Assembly (NCBI GenBank): GCA_963754655.1
Contig: CAVWGN010000001.1
Span: 1,376,001 to 1,440,000 of the forward strand
Source: an uncultured Chlamydiae bacterium
Lineage (GTDB): Bacteria > Chlamydiota > Chlamydiia > Chlamydiales > Parachlamydiaceae
Direction of reading: 5' to 3'
DNA: 64,000 bases
Part shown: positions 23,249-61,082 of the stretch, one piece after another
How the letters are laid out: each line of letters opens with the position of its first letter
How positions within the stretch are numbered: the stretch's first letter is position 1
Notes under the pieces: generated by a model
The model's database searches: none
The model's input: the letters and a program-made list of their open reading frames with translations, nothing else
What the model was told of the DNA's origin: nothing
Translations under genes and position numbers: made by a program

Positions 23249-24838
23249 TTAGCCATTGTCCTGAATGGCAGCCAAGACAATCTCTTGAATGGTTACATCT
23301 GCATATTGCAGAACCCTGCCATTTTGCTTAACGGCCGCCAAGACAATCTCTAGATCTTTTTTAAGGTTTTCAGCCGTAGATGCAAGAGCCAAACCACAGT
23401 CCTTAACAGCAGCCAAGACAATCTCTCGATCTTTTTTAAGACTTTCATCTGCATAGTGAAGAGCGATGCCAGTTTGCTGAACGGAAGCCAAGACAATCTC
23501 TCGATCTTTTGTAAGGCTTTCATCTGCATATTTAAGAGCCCGGCCATCTTGGTTAACGGCCGCCAAAACAATCTCTCGATCTTTTTTAAGGCTTTTACCT
23601 GCATAGCCAAGAGCATCGCCATCTTGCTGAACGGCTGCCAAAACAATCTCTCGATCTTTTCTAAGGCTTGCATCTGCATATTCAAGAGCCCAGCCAACTT
23701 GGTTAACAGCAGCCAAGACAATTTCTCGATCTTTTGTAAGGCTTTTATCTACAAATTGGAGAGCCTTGCCATTTTGCTGAACGGCAGCCAAGATAATCTC
23801 TCGATCATTTTTAAGACTTTTATCTGCATAGACAAGAGTATAACCATCTTGGTTAACGGCAGCTAAGACAATCTCTCGATCCTTTTTAAGGCTTGCATCT
23901 GCATAGAGAAGAGCCCAGCCAACTTGGTTAACAGCAGCCAAGACAATTTCTCGATCTTTTGTAAGGCTTTCATCTACAAATTGGAGAGCCTTGCCATTTT
24001 GCTGAACGGCAGCCAAGATAATCTCTCGATCATTTTTAAGACTTTTATCTGCATAGACAAGAGCATAACCATCTTGGTTAACGGCAGCTAAGACAATCTC
24101 TCGATCCTTTTTAAGGCTTTCATGTATATCAAAAACAGCATATCCAAAATAGCGCGCAACTTGAATAAAAATTTTTTTATCGTTAAAATTGGGAAACTTT
24201 TTAAGAGTAGACAGGAGAGATGTTTTTCCCTCGTGCCATCTTTGAGCTTGACCGGCAAAATAAAATCTTTCAATAAACTCATTTTTGATAACGGTTAATT
24301 TTTCTTCATCACTCCCTGATATAAGAAAATTTAAAATAGACAATTGATTTTCAGCAATCATCTGGATGCGTTGATTGGCGCTGTTTTTGCAAATTTCGGG
24401 TTTCCATATATAGCGATGCAAAAGAGAAAGAAATAAACTCTTTGAGTGAAATAATTCTGAATCAATCATCAATAATTTTTCAAATGTTCTTCTATCTTCA
24501 ATGGCTCGATCAATCAATTTAAGCTCTTTAGAAGTAAAATCCCTCTTTTGGTCTGTAACGATACACTCCTCAGGAGGCGTAATAGTGGGGAATCGATCAC
24601 TGTGTGTAATTTGAAAAAGAGTCTGCAATAATGAGATGCAAGGATTTGTCTGAAGAACCCTTTCCCATTTTTTACAGGTAAGTAAAATAGAAGAAATATT
24701 GCGTAAAGGTTGACTCTTTTGATTGACAATCTGATCAAAAATAATTCCTAATATTTCATTAGGCATTGTATTTAAGAAGAATTCGAATTCCTCTGAAGTG
24801 CTTTGCCTTGTTTGTGAATGAGAGTTAGTAATTTGCAT
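23249..24838 (-). CDS. F-box-like + DUF4116-type repeat protein (array 1, ~11 repeats)
   Basis: MPNEILGIIFDQI..ISSILLTCKKWERVL; repeat variants DGY,NGK,VGW,DGY,NGK,VGW,DGD,DGR,TGI,CGL,NGR. Confidence 0.9.
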   Translation of the reverse strand: MQITNSHSQTRQSTSEEFEFFLNTMPNEILGIIFDQIVNQKSQPLRNISSILLTCKKWERVLQTNPCISLLQTLFQITHSDRFPTITPPEECIVTDQKRDFTSKELKLIDRAIEDRRTFEKLLMIDSELFHSKSLFLSLLHRYIWKPEICKNSANQRIQMIAENQLSILNFLISGSDEEKLTVIKNEFIERFYFAGQAQRWHEGKTSLLSTLKKFPNFNDKKIFIQVARYFGYAVFDIHESLKKDREIVLAAVNQDGYALVYADKSLKNDREIILAAVQQNGKALQFVDESLTKDREIVLAAVNQVGWALLYADASLKKDREIVLAAVNQDGYTLVYADKSLKNDREIILAAVQQNGKALQFVDKSLTKDREIVLAAVNQVGWALEYADASLRKDREIVLAAVQQDGDALGYAGKSLKKDREIVLAAVNQDGRALKYADESLTKDREIVLASVQQTGIALHYADESLKKDREIVLAAVKDCGLALASTAENLKKDLEIVLAAVKQNGRVLQYADVTIQEIVLAAIQDNG

Positions 24839-25222
24839 AATTATCCTCTAATTTAATAATTTAATTTTAACATTTATTATAAATTTTTTAATAAATGGTT
24901 ATTATAACAAATGAAATAATTTATAAGGAGATTTATTTATTTATTTATTTTTGTTGCTGCTAATTAGAAATTGCTGCTTTTTTCCATTTAAACATGGTCA
25001 CTTTTGGAAATGAATCCATAGAACAGGAGGTTCTAGCTAGGGGAGGTTTAATAGAGATATGAAGCCTATCACTCATTTATTAACCCAAAAAGTGATCAAG
25101 CCAATTGTCAAAAAGGTGAGTGTGGTTAAATTCAAGGAATGAGAGAAAAACCCTGCCTAATGTTAGAATTATCCTCCTTTCGGTCAACTTGACCAAAAGG
25201 AGCCTAAGAAAAAATCGTAAGC

Positions 25223-26590
25223 TTAGCCATTGTCCTGAATGGCAGCCAAGACAATCTCTTGAATGGTTTCATGTGCATAAGGGAGAGTATCGACATTTTG
25301 CTTCACGGCGGCTAAGACAATTTGTAGATCTTTTTTAAAGATTCCATCTGCAAATTGAAGAGCATTGCCATGTTGCTGAACGGCAGCCAAGACAATCTCT
25401 CGATCTTTTTTAAGGCTTTTATCTACATATTGAAGAATCCAGCCATATTGCTGAACGGCAGCCAAGATAATCTCTCGATCTTTTTTAAGGCTTTCATCTG
25501 CATGTAGAAGAACAGTGCCATCTTGCTTAACGGCAGCCAAGACAATCTTTCGATCTTTTTTAAGGCTTTCATCTGCAAATTGAAGAGCTCTACCATCTTG
25601 CTGAACGGCAGCCAAGCCAATCTCTCGATCTTTTGTAAGGCTTTCATCTGCATATCGAAGAGCTGTGCCATATTGCTGAACAGCAGCCAAGACAATCTCT
25701 TTATCTTTTTTAAGTCTTTCATCTGCATATTCAAAAGCCAAGCCATTTTGCTGAACGGCAGCCAAGACAACCTCTCGATCTTTTTTAAGGCTTTCATCTG
25801 CAAAGTGAAGAGCTGAGCCACTTTGCTTAACGGCAGCCAAGACAATCTCTCGATCTTTTTTAAAGCCTTCATCTATATCAAAAACATCACCTCCGAAACA
25901 GCGAGCAACTTGAATAAAAACTTTTTTATCATCATTAAGATTGCGAAATTTTTTAAGAGTAGACAGGAGAGATGTTTTTCCCTCGTGCCATCTTTGAGCT
26001 TGACCGGCAAAATAAAATCTTTCAATAAACTCATTTTTGATAACAGTTAATTTTTCTTCATCACTCCCTGATATAAGAAAATTTAAAATAGACAATTGAT
26101 TTTCAGCAATCATCCGGATGCGCTGATTGGCGCTGTTTTTGCAAATTTCGGGTTCCCATATATAGCGATGTAAAAGAGAAAGAAATAAACTCTTTGAGTG
26201 AAATAATTCTGAATCAATCATCAATAATTTTTCAAATGTTCTTCTTTCTCCGATGGCTCGATCAATCAATTTAAGCTCTTGAGATGTAAAATCACTCTTT
26301 TGACCATTTGTGACGATACACTCTTGGGGAAGAGTAATAGTGAATCGATCACTGTGTGTCATTTTAAAAAAAGTCTGCAATAATGAGATGCAAGGATTTG
26401 TCTTAAGAATCCTTTCCCATTTTTTACAGGTGAGTAAAATAGAAGCAATATCGCGTAAAGGTTGACTCTTTTGATTGACAATCTGATCAAAAACAATTTC
26501 TAATATCTCATTAGGCATTGTATTTAAAGAGTATTCGAATTCCTCTGAAGTGCTTTGCTTTGTTTGTGAATGAAAGTCAGTAATCTGCAT
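25223..26590 (-). CDS. F-box-like + DUF4116-type repeat protein (array 1, ~8 repeats)
   Basis: Paralog; variants SGS,NGL,YGT,DGR,DGT,YGW,HGN,NVD. Confidence 0.9.
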   Translation of the reverse strand: MQITDFHSQTKQSTSEEFEYSLNTMPNEILEIVFDQIVNQKSQPLRDIASILLTCKKWERILKTNPCISLLQTFFKMTHSDRFTITLPQECIVTNGQKSDFTSQELKLIDRAIGERRTFEKLLMIDSELFHSKSLFLSLLHRYIWEPEICKNSANQRIRMIAENQLSILNFLISGSDEEKLTVIKNEFIERFYFAGQAQRWHEGKTSLLSTLKKFRNLNDDKKVFIQVARCFGGDVFDIDEGFKKDREIVLAAVKQSGSALHFADESLKKDREVVLAAVQQNGLAFEYADERLKKDKEIVLAAVQQYGTALRYADESLTKDREIGLAAVQQDGRALQFADESLKKDRKIVLAAVKQDGTVLLHADESLKKDREIILAAVQQYGWILQYVDKSLKKDREIVLAAVQQHGNALQFADGIFKKDLQIVLAAVKQNVDTLPYAHETIQEIVLAAIQDNG

Positions 26591-26941: not shown

Positions 26942-28384
26942 TTAGCCATTGTCCTGAATGGCAGCCAAGACAATCTCTTGAATGGTTTTGTGTACATAAG
27001 GGAGAGTATCGACATTTTGCTTCACGGCGGCTAAGACAATTTGTAGATCTTTTTTAAAGATTCCATCTGCAAATTGAAGAGCATTGCCATGTTGCTGAAC
27101 GGCAGCCAAGACAATCTCTCGATCTTTTTTAAGGCTTTTATCTACATATTGAAGAATCCAGCCATATTGCTTAACGGCAGCCAAGACAATCTTTCGATCT
27201 TTTGTAAGACTTTCATCTGCATATAAAAGAGCTGTGCCATCTTGCTTAACGGCAGCCAAGACAATCTTTCGATCTTTTTTAAGGCTTTCATCTGCAAATT
27301 GAAGAGTCCTACCATCTTGCTTAACGGCAGCCAAGCCAATCTCTCGATCTTTTGTAAGGCTTTTATCTACCAATTGAAGAGCTCTACTATCTTGCTGAAC
27401 GGCAGCCAAGACAATCTCTCGATCTTTTTTAAGGCTTTCATCTGCATATCGAAGAGCTGTGCCATATTGCTGAACGGCAGCCAAGACAGTGTCTGGGTCT
27501 TTTTTAAGGCTTTCATCTGCAAATTGAAGAAGCCAGCCATTTTGCTTAACGGCAGCCAAGACAATCTCTCGATCTTTTTTAAGGCTTTCATCTATATATT
27601 CAAGAGTCGTGCCATTTTTCTGAACGGCAGCCAAGACAATCTCTCGATCTTTTTTAAAGCCTTCATCTATATCAAAAACATCATCTCCGAAACAGCGAGC
27701 AACTTGAATAAAAACTTTTTTATCATCGTTAAGATTGCGAAATTTTTTAAGAGTAGACAGGAGAGATGTTTTTCCCTCGTGCCATCTTTGAGCTTGACCG
27801 GCAAAATAAAATCTTTCAATAAACTCATTTTTGATAACGGTTAATTTTTCTTCATCACTCCCTGATATAAGAAAATTTAAAATAGACAATTGATTTTCAG
27901 CAATCATCTGGATGCGTTGATTGGCGCTGTTTTTGCAAATTTCGGGTTCCCATATATAGCGATGCAAAAGAGAAAGAAATAAACTCTTTGAGTGAAATAA
28001 TTCTGAATCAATCATCAATAATTTTTCAAATGTTCTTCTTTCTCCAATGGCTCGATCAATCAATTTAAGCTCTTTAGAAGTAAAATCCCTCTTTTGGTCT
28101 GTAACGATACACTCCTCAGGAGGCGTAATAGTGGGGAATCGATCACTGTGTGTAATTTGAAAAAGAGTCTGCAATAATGAGATGCAAGGATTTGTCTGAA
28201 GAACCCTTTCCCATTTTTTACAGGTAAGTAAAATAGAAGAAATATTGCGTAAAGGTTGACTCTTTTGATTGACAATCTGATCAAAAATAATTCCTAATAT
28301 TTCATTAGGCATTGTATTTAAGAAGAATTCGAATTCCTCTGAAGTGCTTTGCCTTGTTTGTGAATGAAAGTTAGTAATTTGCAT
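26942..28384 (-). CDS. F-box-like + DUF4116-type repeat protein (array 1, ~9 repeats)
   Basis: Paralog; N-terminus near-identical to 23249..24838; variants NGT,NGW,YGT,DSR,DGR,DGT,YGW,HGN,NVD. Confidence 0.9.
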   Translation of the reverse strand: MQITNFHSQTRQSTSEEFEFFLNTMPNEILGIIFDQIVNQKSQPLRNISSILLTCKKWERVLQTNPCISLLQTLFQITHSDRFPTITPPEECIVTDQKRDFTSKELKLIDRAIGERRTFEKLLMIDSELFHSKSLFLSLLHRYIWEPEICKNSANQRIQMIAENQLSILNFLISGSDEEKLTVIKNEFIERFYFAGQAQRWHEGKTSLLSTLKKFRNLNDDKKVFIQVARCFGDDVFDIDEGFKKDREIVLAAVQKNGTTLEYIDESLKKDREIVLAAVKQNGWLLQFADESLKKDPDTVLAAVQQYGTALRYADESLKKDREIVLAAVQQDSRALQLVDKSLTKDREIGLAAVKQDGRTLQFADESLKKDRKIVLAAVKQDGTALLYADESLTKDRKIVLAAVKQYGWILQYVDKSLKKDREIVLAAVQQHGNALQFADGIFKKDLQIVLAAVKQNVDTLPYVHKTIQEIVLAAIQDNG

Positions 28385-28767: not shown

Positions 28768-30138
28768 TTAGCCATTGTCCTGAATGGCAGCCAAGACAAT
28801 CTCTTGAATGGTTTTGTGTACATAAGGGAGAGTATCGACATTTTGCTTCACGGCGGCTAAGACAATTTGTAGATCTTTTTTAAAGATTCCATCTGCAAAT
28901 TGAAGAGCATTGCCATGTTGCTGAACGGCAGCCAAGACAATCTCTCGATCTTTTTTAAGGCTTTTATCTACATATTGAAGAATCCAGCCATATTGCTTAA
29001 CGGCAGCCAAGATAATCTCTCGATCTTTTTTAAGGCTTTCATCTGCATGTAGAAGAACAGTGCCATCTTGCTTAACGGCAGCCAAGACAATCTTTCGATC
29101 TTTTTTAAGGCTTTCATCTGCAAATTGAAGAGCTCTACCATCTTGCTGAACGGCAGCCAAGCCAATCTCTCGATCTTTTGTAAGGCTTTCATCTGCATAT
29201 CGAAGAGCTGTGCCATATTGCTGAACGGCAGCCAAGACAATGTCTGGGTCTTTTTTAAAGCTTTCATCTACATATTGAAGAAGCCAGCCATTTTGCTTAA
29301 CGGCAGCCAAGACAATCTCTCGATCTTTTTTAAGGCTTTCATCTGCAAAGTGAAGAGCACTGCCATCATGTTGCTGAACGGCAGCCAAGACAATCTCTCG
29401 ATCTTTTTTAAAGCCTTCATCTATATCAAAAACATCATCTCCGAAACAGCGAGCAACTTGAATAAAAACTTTTTTATCATCGTTAAGATTGCGAAATTTT
29501 TTAAGAATAGACAGGAGAGATGTTTTTCCCTCGTGCCATCTTTGAGCTTGACCGGCAAAATAAAATCTTTCAATAAACTCATTTTTGATAACGGTTAATT
29601 TTTCTTCATCACTCCCTGATAGAAGAGAATTTAAAATAGACAATTGATTTTCAGCAATCATCCGGATGCGCTGATTGGCGCTGTTTTTGCAAATTTCGGG
29701 TTCCCATATATAGCGATGTAAAAGAGAAAGAAATAAACTCTTTGAGTGAAATAATTCTGAATCAATCATCAATAATTTTTCAAATGTTCTTCTTTCTCCG
29801 ATGGCTCGATCAATCAATTTAAGCTCTTGAGATGTAAAATCACTCTTTTGACCATTTGTGACGATACACTCTTGGGGAAGAGTAATAGTGAATCGATCAC
29901 TGTGTGTCATTTTAAAAAAAGTCTGCAATAATGAGATGCAAGGATTTGTCTGAAGAACCCTTTCCCATTTTTTACAGGTGAGTAAAATAGAAGCAATATC
30001 GCGTAAAGGTTGACTCTTTTGATTGACAATCTGATCAAAAATAATTCCTAATATTTCATTAGGCATTGTATTTAAGGAGAATTCGAATTCCTCTGAAGTA
30101 CTTTGCATTGTTTGTGAATGAAAGTCAGTAATTTGCAT
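28768..30138 (-). CDS. F-box-like + DUF4116-type repeat protein (array 1, ~8 repeats)
   Basis: Paralog; variants HDGS,NGW,YGT,DGR,DGT,YGW,HGN,NVD. Confidence 0.9.
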   Translation of the reverse strand: MQITDFHSQTMQSTSEEFEFSLNTMPNEILGIIFDQIVNQKSQPLRDIASILLTCKKWERVLQTNPCISLLQTFFKMTHSDRFTITLPQECIVTNGQKSDFTSQELKLIDRAIGERRTFEKLLMIDSELFHSKSLFLSLLHRYIWEPEICKNSANQRIRMIAENQLSILNSLLSGSDEEKLTVIKNEFIERFYFAGQAQRWHEGKTSLLSILKKFRNLNDDKKVFIQVARCFGDDVFDIDEGFKKDREIVLAAVQQHDGSALHFADESLKKDREIVLAAVKQNGWLLQYVDESFKKDPDIVLAAVQQYGTALRYADESLTKDREIGLAAVQQDGRALQFADESLKKDRKIVLAAVKQDGTVLLHADESLKKDREIILAAVKQYGWILQYVDKSLKKDREIVLAAVQQHGNALQFADGIFKKDLQIVLAAVKQNVDTLPYVHKTIQEIVLAAIQDNG

Positions 30139-30513: not shown

Positions 30514-31800
30514 TTAGCCATTTTCCTGAATGGCAGCCAAGACAATCTCTTGAATGGTTTTATGTGCATAGCGAAGAGCATCGGCATTTTGCTTAACGGC
30601 AGTCAAAACAATGTGTAGATCTTTTTTAAAGCTTTCATCTGCAAATGCGAGAGCCAAGCCACGTTGCTTAACGGCCGCCAAGACAATATCTTGATCTTTT
30701 TTAAGGATTTCATCTACATATTGAAGAGCATAGCCATTTTGCTGAACAGCAGCCAAGACAATCTCTCGATTTTTTTTTAGACTCTTATCTGCATGTAGAA
30801 AAGCCAAGCTATCTTGCTGAACGGCAGCCAAGACAATCTTTCGATCTTTTTTAAGGATTTCATCTGCCAATTGAAGAGCATTGCTATTTTCTTGAATGGC
30901 AGCCAAGACAATCTCTCGATCTTTTTTAAGGCTTTTATCTGCAAATTTAAGAACATAGCCAGTTTGCTGAACGGCAGCCAAGACAATCTCTCGATCTTTT
31001 TTAAGGCTTTCATCTGCATATTCAAGAGTCATGCCATTTTTCTGAACGGCAGCCAAGACAATCTCTCGATCTTTTTTAAAGCCTTCATCTATATCAAAAA
31101 CAGAAGCTCCGAAACAGCGAGCAACTTGAATTAAAATTTTTTTATCGTTAAGATTGCGAAATTTTTTAAGAGTAGAGATGATAGGTGTTTGTACATCGTG
31201 TAATCTTTGATTTTGAGCTCCTATATAAAACTTTTCGATAAAGTCATTTTTGATAATCGTTAACTTTTCTTCATCACTCCCTGATATAAGAGAGTTTAAA
31301 AGAGACAATTGATTTTCAGCAATCAGCTTGATGCGTTGATTGGCGCTGTTTTTGCAAACTTTAGGCTTCCATTTATAGCGATCCAAAAGAGAAAGAAATA
31401 AACTCTTTGATTGAAATAATTCTGAATCCATCACTAACAATTTTTCAAATGTTTTTCTTTCTCTAATGGCTCGATCAATTAATTTAAGTTCCTTAGATGT
31501 AAAATCCCTCTTTTGATCTGTGACGATACACTCTGGGGGAGGCGTAATAGTGAATCGATCACTGTGTGCAATTTGAAAAAGAGTCTGCAATAATGAGATG
31601 CAAGGATTTGCCTTAAGAACCCTTTCCCATTTTTTACAGGTAAGTAAAATAGAAGAAATATCATGTAAAGGCCGGTTCTTTTGATTGACAATCTGATCAA
31701 AAACAATGCCTAATATCTCATTAGGCATTGTATTTAAGAAGCATTCGAATTCCTCCGAATTGCTTTGCATTGTTTGTAAATTAAAACTAGTAATTTGCAT
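30514..31800 (-). CDS. F-box-like + DUF4116-type repeat protein (array 1, ~7 repeats)
   Basis: Paralog; variants NGM,TGY,NSN,DSL,NGY,RGL,NAD. Confidence 0.9.
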   Translation of the reverse strand: MQITSFNLQTMQSNSEEFECFLNTMPNEILGIVFDQIVNQKNRPLHDISSILLTCKKWERVLKANPCISLLQTLFQIAHSDRFTITPPPECIVTDQKRDFTSKELKLIDRAIRERKTFEKLLVMDSELFQSKSLFLSLLDRYKWKPKVCKNSANQRIKLIAENQLSLLNSLISGSDEEKLTIIKNDFIEKFYIGAQNQRLHDVQTPIISTLKKFRNLNDKKILIQVARCFGASVFDIDEGFKKDREIVLAAVQKNGMTLEYADESLKKDREIVLAAVQQTGYVLKFADKSLKKDREIVLAAIQENSNALQLADEILKKDRKIVLAAVQQDSLAFLHADKSLKKNREIVLAAVQQNGYALQYVDEILKKDQDIVLAAVKQRGLALAFADESFKKDLHIVLTAVKQNADALRYAHKTIQEIVLAAIQENG

Positions 31801-32176: not shown

Positions 32177-33319
32177 TTAGCCATTTTCCTGAATGGCAGC
32201 CAGAATAATCTCTTGAATGGTTTCATCTGCACATTGAAGAGCCCACCAGCCGCCTTGCTTAAAAGCAGCCAAAACAATCTGTATGTCTTTTTTAAGATTT
32301 TCATCTGCATACTGAAGAGCCATGCCATATTGTTTAACGGCAGCCAAGACAATCTCTCGATCTTTTTTAAGGGTTTCATCTGCATATTGAAGAGTATTGC
32401 CATCTTCCTGAACGGCAGCCAAGACAATCTCTCGATTTTGCTTTAGGGCTTCATCTGCAAATTGAAGAGCATAGCTATCTGCCTGAACAGCAGCCAAGAC
32501 AATTTCTTGATCTTTTTTAAGGCTTTGATCTGCATATTGAAGAGCCCAGCCACTTGGCTGAACGGCCGCCAAGACAATTTCTCGATCTTTTTTAAAGCTT
32601 TCATCTATATCAAAAACAGAAGCTCCAAAACAGCGAGCAACTTGAATAAAAACTTTTTTATTATTAAGATTACGAAATTTTTTGAGAGTAGAGATGACAG
32701 CTGTTTGTACCTCGTACCATCTTGGATCTTGAGCGCCAGAATAAAATTTTTCGATAAAGTCATTGTTGATAATAGTTAATTTTTCTTCATCACTGCCTGA
32801 TATAAGCGAATTTAAAATAGACAATTGATTTTCAGCAATCATCTTGATGCGTTTATTGATGCTATTTTTGCAAATTTTAGGGTTCCATATATAGCGATAC
32901 AAAAGAGAAAGAAATAAACTCTTGGATTGAAATAATGTTGAATCAATCATCAATAATTTTTCAAATGTTGTTGTTTCTCTGAGGGCTCGATCAATTAATT
33001 TAAGTTCCTTAGATGTAAAATTCTTCTTCTGATCTGTTGCAATACACTCTGAGGGAGGCATAATAGTGAATCGATCACTGTATTTAATTTGAAAAAGAGT
33101 TTGCAATAATGAGATACAAGGATTTGTCTTAAGAATCCTTTCCCATTTTTTACAGGTGAGTAAAATAGAAGAAATATCGCGTAAAGGTTGACTCTTTTGA
33201 TTGACAATTTGATCAAAAATAATTCCTAATATTTCATTAGGAATTAATATTTCTAAAAAACTTTGGAATTCCTCTGCAGTGTTTCGCATTGTTTGTGAAT
33301 AAAAGTTAGTAGTTTTCAT
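32177..33319 (-). CDS. F-box-like + DUF4116-type repeat protein (array 1, ~5 repeats)
   Basis: Paralog; variants SGW,DSY,DGN,YGM,GGWW. Confidence 0.9.
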   Translation of the reverse strand: MKTTNFYSQTMRNTAEEFQSFLEILIPNEILGIIFDQIVNQKSQPLRDISSILLTCKKWERILKTNPCISLLQTLFQIKYSDRFTIMPPSECIATDQKKNFTSKELKLIDRALRETTTFEKLLMIDSTLFQSKSLFLSLLYRYIWNPKICKNSINKRIKMIAENQLSILNSLISGSDEEKLTIINNDFIEKFYSGAQDPRWYEVQTAVISTLKKFRNLNNKKVFIQVARCFGASVFDIDESFKKDREIVLAAVQPSGWALQYADQSLKKDQEIVLAAVQADSYALQFADEALKQNREIVLAAVQEDGNTLQYADETLKKDREIVLAAVKQYGMALQYADENLKKDIQIVLAAFKQGGWWALQCADETIQEIILAAIQENG

Positions 33320-33492
33320 AATTATCCTTTTAATTTAATAATTTATTTTAATATTTATTAAAAATTTTTTAGTAAATAATTATAATAACAAACAAATTAA
33401 TTTATAAGTAGAGTTATTATTTTTTTTGTTGCTACTAATTAGAAATCGCTGCTTTTGGGAATGAGCCTCTAAAACAAGAAGGTTCTAGCTAG

Positions 33493-33989: not shown

Positions 33990-34176
33990 CTAGGTTAGGT
34001 TTAATAGAGATGTCCGAATCTATCACTCATCTATTAACCCAAAAAGTAATCAAGCCAACTGTCAAAAGTGAGCGTGGTAAATTCATAGAATGAGAGAAAG
34101 AACCTGCATGATATTAGAACTAGACTCCTTTCAGTTAATTTAACCGAAAAGGAGTCTAACAAAAAAAATCGTAAGC

Positions 34177-50662: not shown

Positions 50663-52069
50663 TTACAAATGCCAGACCGAGTATAATGCCAGATCGAGTA
50701 TATAGTTTTTGGGAGTTTGTAGTAGTGAAGTTAAGGCAAGTTCAATTCGAAGAGCTAAACTCACATATTCACGAGCTCGGTCATTTTGCTTAAGGGCCAC
50801 CAAGACAATTTCTCGATCTTTTTTAAGGCTTTCATCTGCATATTCAAGAGCTGTGCCATCTTGGTTAACGGCAGCCAAGACAATTTCTCGATCTTTTTTA
50901 AGACTTTCATCTGCACATTGAAGAGCTTCCGCACTTTGCTTAATGGCAGCCAAGGCAATTTCTCGATTTTTTTTAAGGCTGGCATCTGCATATTCAAGAG
51001 CCCAGCCATCTTGCTTAACGGCAGCCAAGACAATTTCTCGATCTTTTTTAAGGCTTTTACCTGCATAGCCAAGAGCATCGCCATCTTGCTGAACGGCTGC
51101 CAAAACAATCTCTCGATCTTTTCTAAGGCTTGCATCTGCATAGAGAAGAGCCCAGCCAACTTGGTTAACAGCAGCCAAGACAATTTCTCGATCTTTTGTA
51201 AGGCTTTCATCTACAAATTGGAGAGCCTTGCCATTTTGCTGAACGGCAGCCAAGATAATCTCTCGATCATTTTTAAGACTTTTATCTGCATAGACAAGAG
51301 CATAACCATCTTGGTTAACGGCAGCTAAGACAATCTCTCGATCCTTTTTAAGGCTTTCATGTATATCAAAAACAGCATATCCAAAATAGCGCGCAACTTG
51401 AATAAAAATTTTTTTATCGTTAAAATTGGGAAACTTTTTAAGGGTGGAGATGACGGATGTTTTTGCCTGCCGCCAGGTTGCACTTCGACTCGCGCCTCTA
51501 TAAAGTTTGGCAATAGAATCATTCTCGATAACCGTTAATCTTTGTTCATCCGTGCCTAATATAAGAGAATTCAAAATAGACAACTGCTCTTCGGCCACAA
51601 GCTGGATATTTTTATTGGCGCTAATTTTGCAAACGTCAAGATCCCAGGAGTAGCGATCCAAAAGAGAAAGAAATAAACTCTTTGGGTAAAATAATTTTGA
51701 ATCAACCATTAATAATTTTTTAAAGTTTTTTTTAAAGCAGACTCGATCCATCAATTTAAGTTCTTGAGATGTAAAAGACTCATTATCAGCTGTGAGGCAT
51801 GCTTGCAGGTGGCTAATAGTGGTAGAGGGTTGATGGCTACCTTTAAGTTGAAAAAGAACCTGCACCAATGAAATGCAAGGATTCTTTTGAAGAACGCCTT
51901 TCCATTTTTTACAAGTGAATAAAATAGAAGAAATATGTTTTGAAGAGTAGTTCGGGTTGACAACTTGATCAAAAATAATTCCTAATACCTCATTAGGAAT
52001 TAGTGTATCTAACAAAGAGTCGTTTGAAGTTTTGTGCATTGTTTGCAAATGAGAATGTATATTTTGCAT
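50663..52069 (-). CDS. F-box-like + DUF4116-type repeat protein (array 2, ~8 repeats)
   Basis: LIPNEVLGIIFDQV..LFTCKKW; variants DGY,NGK,VGW,DGD,DGW,SAE,DGT,NDR; array-2 tail ..DLALYSVWHL. Confidence 0.9.
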   Translation of the reverse strand: MQNIHSHLQTMHKTSNDSLLDTLIPNEVLGIIFDQVVNPNYSSKHISSILFTCKKWKGVLQKNPCISLVQVLFQLKGSHQPSTTISHLQACLTADNESFTSQELKLMDRVCFKKNFKKLLMVDSKLFYPKSLFLSLLDRYSWDLDVCKISANKNIQLVAEEQLSILNSLILGTDEQRLTVIENDSIAKLYRGASRSATWRQAKTSVISTLKKFPNFNDKKIFIQVARYFGYAVFDIHESLKKDREIVLAAVNQDGYALVYADKSLKNDREIILAAVQQNGKALQFVDESLTKDREIVLAAVNQVGWALLYADASLRKDREIVLAAVQQDGDALGYAGKSLKKDREIVLAAVKQDGWALEYADASLKKNREIALAAIKQSAEALQCADESLKKDREIVLAAVNQDGTALEYADESLKKDREIVLVALKQNDRAREYVSLALRIELALTSLLQTPKNYILDLALYSVWHL

Positions 52070-52285: not shown

Positions 52286-53764
52286 TTACAAATGCCAGAC
52301 CGAATATAATGCCAGATCGGATATATAGTTTTTTGGAGTTTGTAGTAGTGAAGTTAAGGCAATTTCAATTCGAAGAGCTAAACTCACATATTCAAGAACT
52401 CGGTCATTTTGCTTAACGGCCGCCAAGACAATGTCTCGATCTTTTTTAAGGCTTTCATCTGCATACTTAAGAGTCAGGCCATCTTGCTTAACGGCAGCCA
52501 AGACAATGTCTCGATCTTTTTTAAGGCTTGCATCTGCATAGAAAAGAGCCCAGCCATCTTGCTTAACGGCCGCTAAGGCAATCTCTCGATCTTTTTTAAG
52601 GCTTTCATCTGCATATTCAAGAGCGCTGCCTCTTTGCTGAACGGCAGCCAAGACAATTTCTCGATCTTTTTTAAGGCTTGCATCTGCATATTTAATAACA
52701 TAGCCATTTTGCTGAATGGCAGCCAAGACAATTTCTTGATCTTTTTTAAGGCTTTCATTTGCATATTTAAGAGCCCAGCCATCTTGCTGAACAGCAGCCA
52801 AGACAATTTCTCGATTTTTTTTAAGGCTTACATCTGCATATTCAAGAGCTAAGCCCTCTTGCTTAACGGCAGCCAAGACAATTTCTCGATCTTTTTTAAG
52901 GCTTTTACCTGCATAGGCAAGAGCACCTCCTGTTTGCTGAACGGCTGCTAAAACAATCTCTCGATCTTTTCTAAGGCTTATATCTGCATAGAAAAGAGCC
53001 AAGCCAACTTGGTTAACGGCAGCTAAGATAATCTCTCGATCTTTTCTAAAACTTTTAATATCAAAAACAGCCTGTCCAAAACAGCGAACAACCTGAGTAA
53101 AAATTTTTTTATCGTTAAAATTGGGAAATTTTTTAAGTGTGGAGATAACAGATGTTTTTGCCAGCTCCCAGGTTGCACTTAAACTCGCGCCTCTATAAAG
53201 TTTTGCGATAGAATCATTTTCCATAACCGTTAATCTTTGTTCATCCGTGCCGAATATAAGAGAATCTAAAATAGACAACTGCTCTTTAGCCACAAGCTGA
53301 ATGTTTTTATTGGCGCTCTTTTTGCAAAATGCAGGATTCCATGGGTAGCGATCCAAAAGAGAAAGAAATAAACTCTTCGGGTGAAATAATTTTGAATCAA
53401 CCATTAATAATTGTTCAAATCTTTGGTCATCGCTTGCTAGATCGATCAGTTTAAGTTCCTGAGATGTAAAAGACTCATTCTCAGTTGTGAGGCATTCTTG
53501 CAGGTGGCTAATAGTGGTAGAGGATTGATGGCTACCTTTAAGTTGAAAAAGAACCTGCACCAATGAAATGCAACGATTCTTTTGGAGAACGCTTTTCCAT
53601 TTTTTACAGGTAAATAAAATAGAAGAAATATGTTTTGAAGAGTAGTCGGGGTTGACAACTCGATCAAAAATAATGCCTAATACCTCATTTGGAATTAGTG
53701 TATCTAACAAAGAGTCGTTTGAAGCTTTGTATATTGTTTGCAAAGGAGACTGTATATTTTGCAT
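52286..53764 (-). CDS. F-box-like + DUF4116-type repeat protein (array 2, ~9 repeats)
   Basis: Paralog; variants VGL,TGG,EGL,DGW,NGY,RGS,DGW,DGL,NDR. Confidence 0.9.
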   Translation of the reverse strand: MQNIQSPLQTIYKASNDSLLDTLIPNEVLGIIFDRVVNPDYSSKHISSILFTCKKWKSVLQKNRCISLVQVLFQLKGSHQSSTTISHLQECLTTENESFTSQELKLIDLASDDQRFEQLLMVDSKLFHPKSLFLSLLDRYPWNPAFCKKSANKNIQLVAKEQLSILDSLIFGTDEQRLTVMENDSIAKLYRGASLSATWELAKTSVISTLKKFPNFNDKKIFTQVVRCFGQAVFDIKSFRKDREIILAAVNQVGLALFYADISLRKDREIVLAAVQQTGGALAYAGKSLKKDREIVLAAVKQEGLALEYADVSLKKNREIVLAAVQQDGWALKYANESLKKDQEIVLAAIQQNGYVIKYADASLKKDREIVLAAVQQRGSALEYADESLKKDREIALAAVKQDGWALFYADASLKKDRDIVLAAVKQDGLTLKYADESLKKDRDIVLAAVKQNDRVLEYVSLALRIEIALTSLLQTPKNYISDLALYSVWHL

Positions 53765-53817: not shown

Positions 53818-54353
53818 TAGAGTTTTTTACCAAAAATATTTGACACTTACAGCCCTTCAGGCTGCATAACACAACTTACTGATAACCAGGGCGTTGTTCC
53901 ATACGCATCAAGCTAAGAGATGAGCGTAGGCTACGCGACGCATTCAGTCGCCGCGCCGCTTCGCTCTGGGCTCTAGGTGAGGAGGTTGAGGACCCACCGT
54001 TCGGTCGCCCTCCGGGCTCGGTCACAGTGGGCTATTACCAGTCGTCCTACGGACTCTAGCGGCATTATCAGAACGCCTTAAATAGCATTCAATGGCTTTC
54101 TACATTGCCGCTAGAGTCCGTAGGACGACTGGTAATAGCCCACTGTGACCGAGCCCGGAGGGCGACACCGAACGGTGGGTCCTCAACCTCCTCGCCTAGA
54201 GCCCAGAGCGAAGCGGCGCGGCGACTGAAGGCGTCGCGTAGCCTACGCTCATCTCTTAGCTTGATGCGTATGGGACAACGCCCTGGTTATCAGTGAGTTG
54301 TGTCATGCAGCCTGAAGGGTTATAAGTGTCAAATATTTTTGGTAAAAAAACTG
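53818..54353. repeat. ~535-bp nested palindrome (family-B outer arms, family-C core, 41-nt spacer), copy 1
   Basis: Arms reverse-complementary around spacer 54065-54105; TTTATAATT on both sides. Confidence 0.92.
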
Positions 54354-54912: not shown

Positions 54913-56244
54913 TTACAAATGCCCGACCGAGTATAATGCCAGATCGAATATATAGTTTCTTGAATTTTGTAGTAGTAAAGTTAAAGCAAGGTCAATTTGA
55001 AGCGCTAAACTCGCATATTGATATCGAAGAGTCAAGCCATATTGCTTAACGGCAGCCCAGACAATGTCTCGATCTTTTTTAAGGCTGTCATCTGCATATT
55101 CACGAGCTTTGCCATCTTGCTGAACGGCAGCCAAGACAATCTCTCGATCTTTTTTAAGGCTTTCATCTGCATATTGAAGAGCTTTGCCATTTTGCTGAAC
55201 GGCTGCTAAAACAATCTCTCGATCTTTTTTAAGGCTTTCATCTGCATATTGAAGAGCATTGCCATGTTCCTGAACAGCAGCCAAAACAATTTCTAGATCT
55301 TTTTTAAGACTTTCATCTGCATAGTGAAGAGCATAGCCTCTTTGCTGAACGGCAGCCAAGACAATCTCTCGATCTTTTTTAAGGCTTTCATCTGCATATT
55401 CAAGGGCCCAGCCATCTTGCTGAACGGCAGCCAAGACAATCTCTCGATCTTTTTTAAGGCTTTCATCTGCATTTCGAAGAGTCCTACCCCTTCGCTGAAC
55501 GCAAGCTAAGACAATCTCTCGATCTTTTTTAACGCGTTCATGTATATCAAAAACAGAATCTCCAAAACAGCGCGCAGCTTGAATAAAAATTTTTTTATCC
55601 TTAAAATTGGAAAAATTTTTAAGTGTGGAGATGACGAATCTTTCTGCTTTCCACCAGGTGGTACCTCGAATCGCGCCTATATAAACTTTTGTGATAGAAT
55701 TATTTGCGATAACCGTTAATCTTTGCTGCTTAGGACCTGATACAAGAGAATTTAAAATAGACAATTGCTCTTTAGCCACTTGATGAATCCTCTTATTGGC
55801 GCTCCATTGGCAAACTTCAGGATCCCATGAATAGTGATCCAAAAGACAAAGAAACAAACTCTTCGGGTGAAATAATTTTGAATCAGCCATTAATAATTTT
55901 TTAAAGGTTCGATCACAGCAGAATCGATCAATCAATTTAAATTCTTGAGAGGTAAAATGCTTCTTTTGGTAAGTTATCATACAATCCTGTAGCGTAATAG
56001 CAGATCGATTACTGTTTTTAAGCTGAAAAAGGGCCTGCACCAATAAAATACAAGGATTTTTTTGGAGAACACTTTTCCATTTTTTACAAGTGAGTAAAAT
56101 AGAAGAAAAATGCCTTGAAGAGCAGCTTAAGTTGATAACTTGATCAAAAACAACTCCTAATATCTCATTAGGAATTAATGTATCTAACAAAGAGTCGCTT
56201 GAAGTTTTTTGCATTGTTTGCAAATGAGAATGTATATTTTGCAT
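54913..56244 (-). CDS. F-box-like + DUF4116-type repeat protein (array 2, ~7 repeats)
   Basis: Paralog; variants RGR,DGW,RGY,HGN,NGK,DGK,YGL. Confidence 0.9.
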   Translation of the reverse strand: MQNIHSHLQTMQKTSSDSLLDTLIPNEILGVVFDQVINLSCSSRHFSSILLTCKKWKSVLQKNPCILLVQALFQLKNSNRSAITLQDCMITYQKKHFTSQEFKLIDRFCCDRTFKKLLMADSKLFHPKSLFLCLLDHYSWDPEVCQWSANKRIHQVAKEQLSILNSLVSGPKQQRLTVIANNSITKVYIGAIRGTTWWKAERFVISTLKNFSNFKDKKIFIQAARCFGDSVFDIHERVKKDREIVLACVQRRGRTLRNADESLKKDREIVLAAVQQDGWALEYADESLKKDREIVLAAVQQRGYALHYADESLKKDLEIVLAAVQEHGNALQYADESLKKDREIVLAAVQQNGKALQYADESLKKDREIVLAAVQQDGKAREYADDSLKKDRDIVWAAVKQYGLTLRYQYASLALQIDLALTLLLQNSRNYIFDLALYSVGHL

Positions 56245-56460: not shown

Positions 56461-58098
56461 TTACAAATGCCAGACCGAATATAATGCCAGATCGGATATA
56501 TAGTTTTTTGGAGTTTGTAGTAGTGAAGTTAAGGCAAGTTCAATTCGAAGAGCTAAACTCACATATTCAAGAGCTCGGTCATTTTGCTTAAGGGCCGCCA
56601 AGACAATTTCTCGATTTTTTTTAAGGCTTACATCTGCATATTCAAGAGCTAAGCCCTCTTGCTTAACGGCAGCCAAGACAATTTCTCGATCTTTTTTAAG
56701 ACTTTTATCTGCATATTGAAGAGCTCCCGCACTTTGCTTAATGGCAGCCAAGACGATCTCTCGATCTTTTTTAAGGCTTTTATGTGCATAGCGAAGAGCT
56801 TCCCAGCCCCAGCCAACTTGGTTAACGGCTGCCAAAACAATCTCTCGATCTTTTCTAAGGCTTGCATCTGCATATTCAAGAGCCAAGCCAACTTGGTTAA
56901 CGGCAGCCAAGACAATTTCTCGATCTTTTTTAAGGCTTTTACCTGCATATTGAAGACCATTGCCCTCTTGCTGAACGGCTGCCAAAACAATCTCTCGATC
57001 TTTTCTAAGGCTTGCATCTGCATAGAAAAGAGCATCGCCACTTTGCTTAACGGCAGCCAAGACAATTTCTCGATCTTTTTTAAGGCTTTCATCTGCATAG
57101 ACAAGAGCCGTACCATCTTGGTTAACGGCCGCCAAGACAATCTCTTGATCTTTTTTAAGGCTTTCATCTACAAATTGGAGAGCGTTGCCATTTTGCTTAA
57201 CGGCCGCCAAGACAATCTCTTGATCTTTTTTAAGGCTTCCATCTGCATATCGAAGAGCTTGGCCATTTTGCTTAACGGCAGCCAAGATAATATCTCGATC
57301 TTTTTTAAGGCTTTCATCTGCATTTCGAAGAGTCCTACCCCTTCGCTGAACGCAAGCTAAGACAATCTCTCGATCCTTTTTAAGGCTTTCATGTATATCA
57401 AAAACAGAGCGTCCAAAACAGCGCGCAACCTGAATAAAAATTTTTTTATCGTTAAAATTGGGAAACTTTTTAAGGGTGGAGATGACGGATGTTTTTGCCT
57501 GCCGCCAGGTTGCACTTCGACTCGCGCCTCTATAAAGTTTGGCAATAGAATCATTCTCGATAACCGTTAATCTTTGTTCATCCGTGCCGAATATGAGAGA
57601 ATTCAAAATAGACAACTGCTCTTCAGCCACAAGCTGGATATTTTTATTGGCGCTAATTGTGCAAAATTCAGGATTCCATGGGCAGCGATCCAAAAGAGAA
57701 AGAAATAAACTTTTCGGGTGAAATAATTTTGAATCCACCATTAACAATTGTTCAAATCTTTGGTTATCATTTGCTAGATCGATTAGTTTAAGTTCCTGAG
57801 ATGTAAAAGACTCATTCTCAGTTGTGAGGCATTCTTGCAGGTGGCTAATAGTAGAGGGGTGATGGCTACCGTTAAGTTGAAAAAGAGCCTGCACCAATGA
57901 AATACAAGGATTCTTTTGGAGAACGCTTTTCCATTTTTTACAGGTAAATAAAATAGAAGAAATATGTTTTGAAGAGTAGTCAGGGTTGACAACTCGATCA
58001 AAAATAATGCCTAATACCTCATTTGGAATTAGTGTATCTAACAAAGAGTCGTTTGAAGCTTTGTATATTGTTTGCAAAGGAGACTGTATATTTTGCAT
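56461..58098 (-). CDS. F-box-like + DUF4116-type repeat protein (array 2, ~11 repeats)
   Basis: Paralog; variants RGR,NGQ,NGN,DGT,SGD,EGN,VGL,VGWGWE,SAG,EGL,NDR. Confidence 0.9.
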   Translation of the reverse strand: MQNIQSPLQTIYKASNDSLLDTLIPNEVLGIIFDRVVNPDYSSKHISSILFTCKKWKSVLQKNPCISLVQALFQLNGSHHPSTISHLQECLTTENESFTSQELKLIDLANDNQRFEQLLMVDSKLFHPKSLFLSLLDRCPWNPEFCTISANKNIQLVAEEQLSILNSLIFGTDEQRLTVIENDSIAKLYRGASRSATWRQAKTSVISTLKKFPNFNDKKIFIQVARCFGRSVFDIHESLKKDREIVLACVQRRGRTLRNADESLKKDRDIILAAVKQNGQALRYADGSLKKDQEIVLAAVKQNGNALQFVDESLKKDQEIVLAAVNQDGTALVYADESLKKDREIVLAAVKQSGDALFYADASLRKDREIVLAAVQQEGNGLQYAGKSLKKDREIVLAAVNQVGLALEYADASLRKDREIVLAAVNQVGWGWEALRYAHKSLKKDREIVLAAIKQSAGALQYADKSLKKDREIVLAAVKQEGLALEYADVSLKKNREIVLAALKQNDRALEYVSLALRIELALTSLLQTPKNYISDLALYSVWHL

Positions 58099-58151
58099 AA
58101 TTATCCTGTGAATAAACTATTAATTTTACTATTTAAATTTAATTTATAATT

Positions 58152-58686
58152 CAGAGTTTTTTACCAAAAATATTTGACACTTACAGCCCTTCAGGCTGCA
58201 TAACACAACTTACTGATAACCAGGGCATTGCCCCATACGCATCAAGCTAAGAGATGAGCGTAGGCTACGCGACGCATTCAGTCGCCGCGCCGCTTCACTC
58301 TGGGCTCTATGTAAGGGGGTTGAGGACCCACCGTTCGGTCGCCCTCCGGCTCGGTCACGGTGGGCTATTACCAGTCGCCCTACAAACTCTAGCGGCAATG
58401 TAGAAAGCCATTGAATGCTATTTAAGGCGTTCTGATAATGCCGCTAGAGTCCGTAGGACGACTGGTAATAGCCCACCGTGACCGAGCCCGGAGGGCGACC
58501 GAACGGTGGGTCCTCAACCCCCTTACATAGAGCTCAGAGTGAAGCGGCGCGGCGACTGAATGCGTCGCGTAGCCTACGCTCATCTCTTAGCTTGCTGCGT
58601 ATGGGACAACGCCCTGGTTATCAGTAAGTTGTGTTATGCAGCCTGAAGGGCTGTAAGTGTCAAATATTTTTGGTAAAAAAAACCTG
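58152..58686. repeat. ~535-bp nested palindrome, copy 2 (central spacer inverted relative to copy 1)
   Basis: Same flanks as 53818-54353; spacer 58398-58438 is the exact reverse complement of 54065-54105. Confidence 0.92.
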
Positions 58687-58885
58687 TTTATAATTTTATT
58701 AGATATTATAATATAAGTTTTATGGTTATAATTCAATGTATTAATTCTAATTATATTAACACAATTTATAAATTTTTAAACTGCTCTAACCATCAAATTT
58801 TAATCGAACAGTAACACATTCTGGAAGAGATGGCTTTAATGGGAAAAGAATAGTTCCAGAGAAAAAAGTAAGCAAAACTTATTTT

Positions 58886-59268
58886 TTATGCCTGAGTTTT
58901 TCCGACCCAAATGGCAAAAGCTGTGGCATATTGCTGACAATGACTAAGCGAAACATGGAGGGTGGTGAGATCGCCAAATAATTCTTGTGCAAATGGCGAG
59001 AAAATAGCGATTGGTTTACCTGTGGGATGATTTCGAATCTTAATATCTAACCAAGTCAGTCCTTGGAAAAATCCTGTTCCCAAGGTTTTTACAATGGCTT
59101 CTTTAGCTGCAAAGCGGCCTGCTAAGTGAAGAGCAGGCTCTTTGCGTTTGAGACAATAGTCCTGCTCATAGGAGGTAAATACGCGATTGAGAAATCGTTG
59201 TGAATAATGTGTAAGAACTGCTTGAATGCGGGCAGTTTCCACAATGTCATTACCAATTCTCAAATCAT
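58886..59268 (-). pseudogene. acpS: Duplicate acpS frameshifted right after its start codon
   Basis: ATG ATT TGA at 59268 versus ATG ATT TTG GGA in the intact copy; the rest (GNDIVE, GRFAAKEA) is intact and reachable from an upstream ATG at 59323. Confidence 0.8.
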
Positions 59269-59601
59269 AAAGCCAGAAAATTTTTATGTGTCTTAAGCTC
59301 TTGATTATTATTTGAAAAATCATCCTCTGTCAACAGACTTCCCTTTTCTGCTGCATTGCAGAAAATCATTCTACTCGAAGAAGTGTGTTTAACAGACAAG
59401 ACATAAGCTTTAATTGTTTCCCCAATAAATTCAGCTACTTCATTGACAACTACCATTGTTCCATCTTCCAGGTAACCCACACCTTGACGAGCCTCTTTAC
59501 CATAGCGTTGAATCTTGTTGTTAATCGATTCGTCTGCTTGTATAATAGGTTTGAGGGCATTGGAAAGCATATGAATGTTGATAATTCTTACACCTTCAAT
59601 C
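59265..59601 (-). pseudogene. 5'-truncated duplicate of the PIN/TRAM gene 3' end
   Basis: Near-identical to 63570-63906; homology stops at CACCTTCAATC. Confidence 0.88.
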
Positions 59602-59669
59602 CAAATATTCTCTCATATAAACTATTTGACAAACTGTAGAAAGTTTGATCGGTCAAGCGAAAAAAAAAC

Positions 59670-61082
59670 TTACAAATGCCAGACCGAGTGTAATGCCAGA
59701 TCGAGTATATAGTTTTTTGAAGTTTGTAGTAGTAGAGTTAGGGCACGTTCAATTCGAAAATCTAAACTCGCATATTCAAGAGCCTTGCTATCTTGCTGAA
59801 TAGCAGCTAAGACAATCTCTCGATCGTTTGTAAGGCTTTCATCTGCATATTGAAGAGCTAAGCCCTTTTGCTTAACGGCTGCCAAGACAATGTCTCGATC
59901 CTTTTTAAGGCTTTTAGCTGCCCAGTAAAGCATATCGCCATCTTGCTTAATGGCAGCCAAGACAATTTCTCGATCTTTTTTAAAGCTTGCATCTGCATAG
60001 AGAAAAGCCAAGAAATTTTGCTTAACGGCAGCTAAGACAATCTCTCGATCTTTTTTAAGGCTTTTATCTGCATAATCAAGAGCCCAGCCCCTTTGCTGAA
60101 TGGCAGCCCAGACAATCTCTCGATCTTTTTGAAAGCTTTTATCTGCATATTTAAGAGATAAGCCCTCTTGCTGAACAGCAGCCCCGACAATTTCTCGATC
60201 TTTTTTAAGGCTTTCATCTGCATATTTAAAAGCCCCGCCATTTTGCTGAACAGCAGCCAAGACAATCTCTCGATCTTTTTTAAAGCTTTCATCTACCAAC
60301 TCAAGAGCCTCTCCATTTTGCTGAACAGCAGCCAAAACAATCTCTCGATCTTTTTTAAGGCTTTCATGTATATCAAAAACAGCATCTCCAAAACAGTGCG
60401 CAACTTGAATGAAAAATTTTTTATCGTTAAAATTGGGAAATTTTTTAAGGGTGGAGATGACAGATGTTTTTGCCTGCCGCCAGGTTGCACTTCGACTTCC
60501 GCCCCTATAAAGTTTTGTGATAGAATCATTTTCGATAACCGTTAATTTTTGTTCATCCGTGCCTAATATAAGAGAATTCAGAATAGACAACTGCTCTTCA
60601 GCCACAAGCTGGATGTTTTTATTGGCGCTCTTTTTGCAAACGTCAAAATCCCAGGAGTAATGATCCAAAAGAGAAAGAAATAAACTCTTTGGGTGAAATA
60701 ATCTTGAATCAACCATTAGTAATTTTTTAAAGTTTTCTTTAAAGTAGACTTGATCAATCAATTTAAATTCTTGAGATGTAAAAGACTTCTTTTGTCCATC
60801 AGTTGTGAGGCATTCTTGGAGGTGCTTAATAGTGTTAGGGCGTTGATGGCTACCTTTAAGTTGAAAAAGAGCCTGCACCAATGAAATGCAAGGGTTCTTT
60901 TGGAGAACGCTTTTCCATTTTTTACAAGTGAGTAAAATAGAAAAGGTGTCATTTAAAGATTGGCTTTGGTTGACAACTTGATCAAAAACAATTCCTAATA
61001 CCTCCTTAGGAATTAGTGTATCTAACAAAGAGTCGTTTGAAGTTTTGTGTATTGTTTGCAAATGAGAATGTATATTTTGCAT
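59670..61082 (-). CDS. F-box-like + DUF4116-type repeat protein (first gene of array 2, ~8 repeats)
   Basis: Paralog; variants NGE,NGG,EGL,RGW,NFL,DGD,KGL,DSK. Confidence 0.9.
   Translation of the reverse strand: MQNIHSHLQTIHKTSNDSLLDTLIPKEVLGIVFDQVVNQSQSLNDTFSILLTCKKWKSVLQKNPCISLVQALFQLKGSHQRPNTIKHLQECLTTDGQKKSFTSQEFKLIDQVYFKENFKKLLMVDSRLFHPKSLFLSLLDHYSWDFDVCKKSANKNIQLVAEEQLSILNSLILGTDEQKLTVIENDSITKLYRGGSRSATWRQAKTSVISTLKKFPNFNDKKFFIQVAHCFGDAVFDIHESLKKDREIVLAAVQQNGEALELVDESFKKDREIVLAAVQQNGGAFKYADESLKKDREIVGAAVQQEGLSLKYADKSFQKDREIVWAAIQQRGWALDYADKSLKKDREIVLAAVKQNFLAFLYADASFKKDREIVLAAIKQDGDMLYWAAKSLKKDRDIVLAAVKQKGLALQYADESLTNDREIVLAAIQQDSKALEYASLDFRIERALTLLLQTSKNYILDLALHSVWHL

Follow-up and report, generated by a model that had tools for sequence, protein, structure and literature searches.

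The locus examined here raises the question of what a chlamydial genome gains from a tandem array of paralogous genes in which no two copies carry the same string of repeats. The window, a 64,000-nucleotide stretch from an uncultured member of the Parachlamydiaceae (positions 1376001-1440000 of contig 1; genome of 3.16 Mb in two contigs, without N, 96.7% complete), contains between its positions 23249 and 61082 a series of genes that combine an F-box-like N-terminal motif, a helical linker and a C-terminal string of DUF4116 repeats. Two positions of the repeat show a strong signal of diversifying selection, the copies exchange repeat blocks by gene conversion, and the N-terminus has a weak yet credible resemblance to an F-box, with homology demonstrable at the level of the family. 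On balance we lean towards reading these proteins as injected substrate adaptors of SCF (Skp1-Cullin1-F-box) ligases, which together make up an arsenal of the species.

Extent and growth of the gene family

Listing and translation of the open reading frames (ORFs) resolved the span into 17 intact family genes, one pseudogene and one repeat-only fragment (43506-43859), with one further copy outside the array at 3189-4238. This bears out the original prediction of 18 paralogues, a fragment and an outlying copy; all 20 ORFs match DUF4116 (PF13475), with E-values of 1e-30 to 3e-151 and scores of 105-491 bits against a cut-off of 24.9 bits. All 18 genes are present, but the copy interrupted at 36477 is a pseudogene, that at 41930 ends in a frameshift and that at 45931 is inverted. 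The repeat string is indeed unique to each gene in the window, although single units recur between genes, and the predicted 5-12 repeats agree with the count, since each intact array gene has a capping unit besides its 5-11 repeat anchors. The tails are specific to each array as described (..AAIQ(D/E)NG versus ..DLALYSVWHL), except that the inverted copy has neither. The size of the family had been underestimated, about one fifth of it having been seen: a genome-wide search with a profile of the head, the part that precedes the repeats, found 110 ORFs, comprising 88 full-length copies with repeats and 22 partial head ORFs. The family occupies 136 kb in 24 clusters of 1-17 genes each, and is the biggest cluster in an all-against-all protein comparison (104 ORFs, against 13 in the next real families).

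The 17-gene array in the window is real and no product of assembly collapse. Heads of the copies are 44-98% identical in pairwise comparison (median 57%), the assembly consists of two contigs without N, and two relatives, P0033 and P0062, are encoded on a separate ENA contig of 127 kb, their heads being 82% and 94-95% identical and their repeat strings different. Beyond these relatives the head is rarely found. It had no match in the genomes of 40 relatives in a single-query search, and its profile matched 2 of 399 other genomes of the phylum, with one genome unscored and one of the two matches a true distant homologue; none of the five genomes G002, G004, G009, G011 and G020 matched. A local search detects the head in G011 (E 4.5e-8), so the genome profile searches overlook distant heads. 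Only 20 matches came from a search of 1.84 billion representative proteins, those from outside the source including P0050, P0052 and P0058, which combine head and DUF4116, and P0060. A metagenome scan with the head profile produced 206 pattern matches and no confirmed one, NCBIfam contains no family matching these proteins, and among public sequencing runs no RNA run was listed as containing the family, while the one DNA run with 0.12 of the query words yielded short fragments only. Rare distant relatives of the head, together with close relatives bearing other repeat strings, indicate that the architecture of F-box, linker and DUF4116 is old and rare, and that its expansion to ~90 copies, confined to one lineage, is recent and real.

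Both arrays arose in place, since three congeneric genomes (G001-G003) keep the same flanking genes (a HEAT-repeat gene, trxB and acpS) 0.4-3 kb apart with no array between them, whereas here they are separated by 26.6 and ~13 kb. A partial duplicate of acpS and of the end of the PIN/TRAM gene (58883-59561, reverse strand), 97-98% identical to 63187-63866, is the footprint of a tandem duplication, and in the head tree the copies cluster mostly by genomic location. Exchange between copies is plainest in the chimeric gene at 23249-24838 (529 amino acids, reverse strand), as seen by comparing the copies. Its head is 99.4% identical to that of the neighbouring 26942 copy; there follows a tract of 319 nucleotides (23887-24205, reverse strand) identical to 51124-51442 in the 50663 copy of the other array, although the heads of these two copies are only 74% identical; then come a three-repeat duplication, another 107 identical nucleotides and finally the tail of its own array. 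Many further pairs of copies have identical tracts of 100-520 nucleotides in common. Copies thus exchange repeat blocks by gene conversion, and gene order in the congeners and the head tree uphold the earlier idea of diversification in place. Read in its +1 frame the repeat contains no stop, and 8 KKIERLS-type and 14 FSKM-type tails stem from this frame.

Variable repeats and the F-box-like head

In an AlphaFold2 model of the 428-residue copy at 30514-31800, built from an alignment of 62 of the 88 copies plus P0033, the repeats form an alpha-solenoid (30517-31077, reverse strand) with a predicted local distance difference test score (pLDDT) of 93-98. Each 25-residue repeat consists of a long helix (positions 4-13), a cap (14), a short helix (15-20) and a turn helix. 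Profile scores and predicted structure agree with the assignment to DUF4116 made originally, and an alpha-solenoid has been modelled for this domain before (PMC8078820, as far as the text available goes). Fold searches with the full model gave no significant match, the best hits being designed armadillo/ankyrin solenoids (Foldseek E 0.009; Z 7.2). Given their spacing of i, i+3 and i+4, positions 16, 19 and 20 would lie on one face of the short helix.

The repeats are extremely diverse: in the window 101 of 119 parsed units are distinct, with several identical at the DNA level, and genome-wide 733 of 768 are, in a set made up of non-terminal units of exactly 25 residues. Diversity is concentrated at fixed positions, with entropy maxima at position 16 (3.77 bits), 19 (2.92) and 14 (2.76). 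Position 16 takes all 20 amino acids, W, Y, R and L being commonest, and 157 different residue pairs occur at 16 and 19, the top four of which account for 22%. In 666 units from 103 other DUF4116 proteins, variation within a protein likewise peaks at these three positions. Independently of any model, diversity in codon 16 is 0.67-0.69 at its first and second bases, as against a mean of 0.195 at four-fold sites and values of 0.065 and 0.053 at the four-fold sites of the neighbouring codons 17 and 18. A site-class codon model fitted to 744 distinct units gave twice the log-likelihood difference (2dlnL) of 656, with omega, the ratio of non-synonymous to synonymous rates, at 4-6 for position 16 and 2-3 for position 19; removal of the four variable codons reduced 2dlnL to 1.8, and the 108 units of the window by themselves gave 94. 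The signal for diversifying selection at positions 16 and 19 is therefore strong by these tests, in keeping with the original idea of a reprogrammable solenoid.

The linker (residues 63-241; 31078-31614 in the modelled copy, reverse strand) is a helical domain of ~180 residues, with pLDDT 82 in a model of the head, that matches no known family; used by itself it found no usable match in the ESM Atlas. The original description of it as conserved missed that patches at residues 113-117, 193-205 and 232 are positively selected (2dlnL 226; 88 heads, 238 of 330 columns). Over the same alignment the heads as a whole have an M0 omega of 0.55.

The F-box-like region covers residues ~23-62 of the head (31615-31734 in the modelled copy, reverse strand). 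Pfam cut-offs are 24.3 bits for F-box-like (PF12937) and 20.5 bits for F-box. Among 83 heads scanned, five of the 88 with a mis-parsed first repeat being set aside, 56 match F-box-like at E<=1 and 28 match F-box. Three paralogues outside the window, chosen as the best scorers of the 88, pass one or both cut-offs: two pass F-box-like (25.6 and 25.0 bits) and two reach F-box (20.5 and 21.2). Whole window proteins compared with the F-box families give sub-threshold E-values of 0.005-0.055. A profile of the head aligned with one of 10 unrelated chlamydial F-box-like segments with a probability of 82.5% (E 1e-5), and the F-box core (P26, L30, F34, S50, L52, T54, C55, W58) is under strong purifying selection, with omega <= 0.13, five of the eight residues being invariant in 88 copies. 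The AlphaFold2 model places helices at 27-38, 46-54 and 58-64, with pLDDT 45-70, and 69-81 in the head-only model. Structural searches added little: fold searches with the head model had a best E of 0.8 and Z of 6.0, with no F-box protein among the best 50 PDB matches listed; against viral structures 4 of the best 50 rows bear an F-box name, at non-significant E-values of 0.6-3.5; and PDB searches with family sequences gave no match. The ESM Atlas returned matches to the head at 0.84-0.86, three of four in F-box clusters, which we treat as leads. The F-box-like motif noted originally is thus supported as homology at the level of the family, but the window copies tested stay below cut-off and the fold searches gave no significant match.

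Upstream of this motif, the first 20 residues are rich in T (12.7%), S (11.8%), L (11.7%), N (10.9%) and Q (10.3%) and poor in K+R (3.2%), and they are disordered in the model; both features are compatible with a type III secretion signal. The genome encodes a type III system, as the adaptor reading needs, SctV scoring 915 against a cut-off of 692 bits and SctU 382 against 358. The host is presumably an amoeba, judging from membership of the Parachlamydiaceae (PMC4209131, in the part consulted). The placement in this family agrees with a genome of the same family, G139, which carries the protein that NCBI attributes to Candidatus Protochlamydia phocaeensis.

DUF4116 itself is far more widespread than the head. 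It was found in 17 of the 40 relatives and at E<=1e-20 in 2649 of 8000 scored candidates, its carriers being chlamydiae, Legionella, protists and giant viruses. The 120 best database matches include proteins that join it to a canonical F-box (P0087, above cut-off at E 3e-11), to HECT (P0084, Parachlamydiales), to RING (P0141) and, in Naegleria and Sylvanvirus, to kinases; at the loci sampled, the DUF4116 proteins of G004 bear a hydrophobic head, and those of G009 have PARP, DUF294 and, by eye, a kinase-like region as heads. Joined in this way to F-box, HECT, RING, kinase and PARP, DUF4116 behaves, as judged from sequence, as a portable targeting module. The independent fusions to ubiquitin-ligase domains favour the proposed substrate-binding solenoid, target binding itself being a presumption. 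At two of the G009 loci (L089 and L090) there are large proteins in which LRR and DUF4116 repeats accompany PARP or DUF294/SidM-N-like domains. Diverged proteins with head and DUF4116 (L038, contig 1, 124207-126213; and P0102) end in basic stretches that by eye resemble nuclear localization signals (NLS). At L074:1935-3849 a gene with HD domain and kinase and an RNA-ligase-like gene, both recognized by eye, lie between a DUF4116 array and type III genes.

The adaptor reading and its rivals

If these proteins are adaptors, the disordered S/T/N/Q/L-rich first ~20 residues would direct their export, by way of the type III system, into a eukaryotic host cell, where residues ~23-62, homologous to F-boxes, would dock on Skp1. 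Linker and solenoid would then form the target-binding surface, its chemistry probably determined by residues 16, 19 and 20 of each repeat and by the two linker patches, where variation and selection are seen, and bound proteins would be ubiquitinated and degraded, by analogy with Orientia Ank5 and GALA. The repertoire renews itself by processes visible in the genome: tandem duplication with point mutation at the variable codons, repeat gain and loss, inter-array conversion and pseudogenisation. The secreted adaptors of the original prediction are thus favoured by F-box homology, type III genes, selection and block exchange, but secretion, Skp1 binding and targets are parts that we infer. A search for the Skp1 family in 400 genomes of the phylum gave no match, and the control was silent too; Skp1 homologues do occur on viral contigs of 1.8-2.5 Mb (L062, L063, L068 and L069), their reading frames breaking near the C-terminus, apparently at introns.

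A number of observations weigh against the adaptor reading. None of the window copies examined (four heads, as 100-residue pieces) passes the F-box-like cut-off, the best reaching 20.7 of 24.3 bits; the motif holds a ~6-residue insertion between its first two helices; its pLDDT is 45-70 in the full model; and F-box-like motifs picked out by eye in DUF4116 proteins of G020 and G011 have no Pfam F-box match (0/8). The site models are an in-house grid approximation on trees disturbed by recombination, a worry that the framework control limits and does not remove. Many framework sites of the repeat evolve at omega 0.5-1, and 22 of the 110 head ORFs are broken, as would suit a situation in which each single copy is only weakly selected.

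The low F-box scores and the insertion also suit proteins that are secreted to block or relocate their targets, or to act as Skp1 decoys, without productive ubiquitination and with the F-box vestigial or structural. Conserved N39, Q40, N65 and C67 fall outside the F-box consensus, suggesting that the motif packs against the linker, and Orientia Ank5 also works independently of its F-box (PMC11401901, available text). Yet the most strictly kept residues are those of the canonical F-box core, and canonical F-box, HECT and RING have each been fused to DUF4116 independently, so that we hold such binders or decoys to be possible but rather unlikely. Genomic drift, with a duplication-prone cassette in a recombinogenic genome rich in insertion sequences (IS), largely redundant copies and neutral diversity, would account for the broken heads, for the slippage-prone A6 run with which 547 of the 768 units start, for the several IS families at 8-11 copies each, and for a head omega within the range of 0.29-0.63 that was read as purifying selection plus drift in comparable families (PMC4209131, available text). 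Neutral spread, however, cannot make the non-synonymous diversity of two codons ~10 times the synonymous diversity three bases away, nor does it predict site-specific omega above 1 with a clean framework control; as a full explanation drift is quite improbable, although it may set copy number.

A repeat that reads nucleic acid in the manner of PUF, TALE or PPR proteins, with residue 16 stacking, residue 19 reading a base and the head recruiting host machinery to DNA or RNA, has very little probability in our estimation. An aromatic residue or Arg at 16 with Gln, Glu or Lys at 19 is, we assume, reminiscent of PUF chemistry; 16 and 19 are weakly coupled (mutual information 0.37 versus 0.26 shuffled); and the diverged copy P0051 and the relative P0102 end in NLS-like basic stretches by eye. 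The mean net charge of -0.63 per repeat speaks against this, and the coupling may reflect shared descent. A four-letter base code of the TALE/PUF type was rejected, given 20 residues at position 16 and the spread of 16/19 pairs. Most codons at position 14 have the form NNT, a pattern expected of mutagenesis directed at adenines, but the adenines of the repeat framework are conserved, and that a diversity-generating retroelement or a similar targeted mechanism writes the variable codons is scarcely conceivable; the retroelement is largely refuted by the conserved adenines and by the lack of any RVT_1 reverse transcriptase match in this 96.7% complete genome (control positive in 3 of 14). A bolder version of the adaptor reading, which we consider unlikely, would make DUF4116 a modular scaffold with a code per repeat, positions 16, 19 and 20 each time reading one unit of an extended target (peptide residue or base), and the family an antibody-like repertoire of ~90 degraders, produced by shuffling of coded repeats between arrays. 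Its targets would be rapidly evolving proteins, either the host's own or those of giant viruses or bacteria that infect the same cell.

Known counterparts, array inventory and neighbouring observations

The closest parallels to the preferred reading, as adaptors, are the NEX1a and NEX2 families of Neochlamydia and PEX1 of Protochlamydia, with 138, 73 and 50 members (PMC4209131, in the text available, as throughout these comparisons). They too are lineage-specific expansions of similar size in Parachlamydiaceae, in tandem arrays with pseudogenes, with an N-terminal ligase-adaptor motif, a conserved orphan linker and a variable C-terminal repeat count, and their overall omega of 0.29-0.63 brackets the 0.55 of our heads. 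They differ in their modules, namely LRR (NEX1, PEX1), TPR plus DUF294 (NEX2) and a BTB head (PEX1) in place of DUF4116; none of LRR, TPR, DUF294 and BTB is among the top five Pfam matches listed per window copy or among the head matches, and the term DUF4116 is absent from the main text and two of three supplements of that study. Its secretion signals were tested, whereas ours is putative. With M0 and pairwise tests as its only tests of selection, that study saw no sign of positive selection, nor did it find recombination convincing, in contrast to the site-model selection and the 319-nucleotide conversion tract here.

GALA proteins of Ralstonia solanacearum likewise are F-box and solenoid paralogues with positive selection on one repeat face, which has been taken as the binding site; they are injected type III effectors that have diversified functionally (PMC2244805, PMC3263339). 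Unlike our ~90 copies with an all-helical 25-residue repeat, they form a small CC-LRR family kept across the species complex, and act in plants. In Orientia tsutsugamushi, which is also an obligate intracellular bacterium with effectors of repeat and F-box layout, a tyrosine in the Ank5 repeats binds the target and the F-box directs SCF ubiquitination (PMC11401901); there the repeats are ankyrins, the host is mammalian and the mechanism is proven, while here it is only predicted. Because its repeat differs, the family is separate from NEX/PEX, GALA and Ank5, though it would work alike. Birth and death have been mentioned for nematode and plant F-box genes (PMC1866355), and a preprint names DUF4116 as a label only (bioRxiv 10.1101/2022.04.12.488082), both in the portions available. 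In the literature searched, mostly openly accessible papers, neither the family nor its fixed hypervariable positions and their selection are described, and DUF4116 is given no function; the strategy is known, whereas for the repeat type, the site-specific selection and the swapping of modules this search found no precedent.

These 733 distinct variants on one scaffold amount to a natural library that names the residues which probably set specificity, and the link between repeat and ubiquitin ligases makes the function of DUF4116 directly testable. Domman et al. doubted an arms race behind the chlamydial F-box expansions, having seen no positive selection (PMC4209131). Strong selection confined to a few sites bears on that doubt, since whole-gene tests, such as that giving a head omega of 0.55, would miss it.

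The individual genes, on the reverse strand throughout except for one, were delimited by ORF listing and Pfam scan. Outside the arrays lies the dispersed, diverged member of 349 amino acids at 3189-4238, with few repeats, assigned by its head (E 1e-102) and the tree. After the chimera, the first array continues with members of 455 amino acids (25223-26590; AAIQDNG tail, F-box-like 20.2 bits), 480 (26942-28384), 456 (28768-30138; F-box-like 20.7 bits), the modelled copy, 380 (32177-33319) and 551 (34177-35832). The pseudogene at 36200-37751 starts at 37751 and has in-frame stops at 37623-37625 and 36477-36479 and one further. Members of 506 (38125-39645) and 456 amino acids (40021-41391) follow, then one of 400 (41930-43132), which ends frameshifted in the +1 repeat frame, with its former tail out of frame at 41769-41951. 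The repeat-only fragment is an orphan tail behind the 457-residue copy at 43884-45257, whose first 522 nucleotides are identical to those of the 40021 copy. The inverted member (45931-47265, forward strand, 444 amino acids) belongs to another clade of the head tree. The second array comprises members of 468 (50663-52069; DLALYSVWHL tail), 492 (52286-53764), 443 (54913-56244), 545 (56461-58098) and 470 amino acids (59670-61082).

Between array genes there are near-perfect palindromes with arms of 183-227 nucleotides, at 33489-33993, 53823-54349 and 58123-58714, which could aid rearrangement. An IS607-like element at 61396-63168 encodes a resolvase and a TnpB split over two ORFs, with ~11 related ORFs in the genome, and a Mutator-family transposase at 14265-15467 has 8 genomic copies. 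A 458-residue lysine-rich coiled-coil ORF occupies 4486-5862 in a stretch of 26.5% GC, with no family above cut-off. Elsewhere on contig 1, a tandem array of five long ORFs (L106:906-12276; 1211882-1223273), the first with Myb-like DNA-binding repeats, may encode nuclear effectors. Other tandem families, with 7-13 effector-like genes each, lie at 2071069-2081987, 2326087-2345240, 2510428-2519722 and 1893756-1920773, and the proteins of several of these begin, by eye, with an F-box-like motif.

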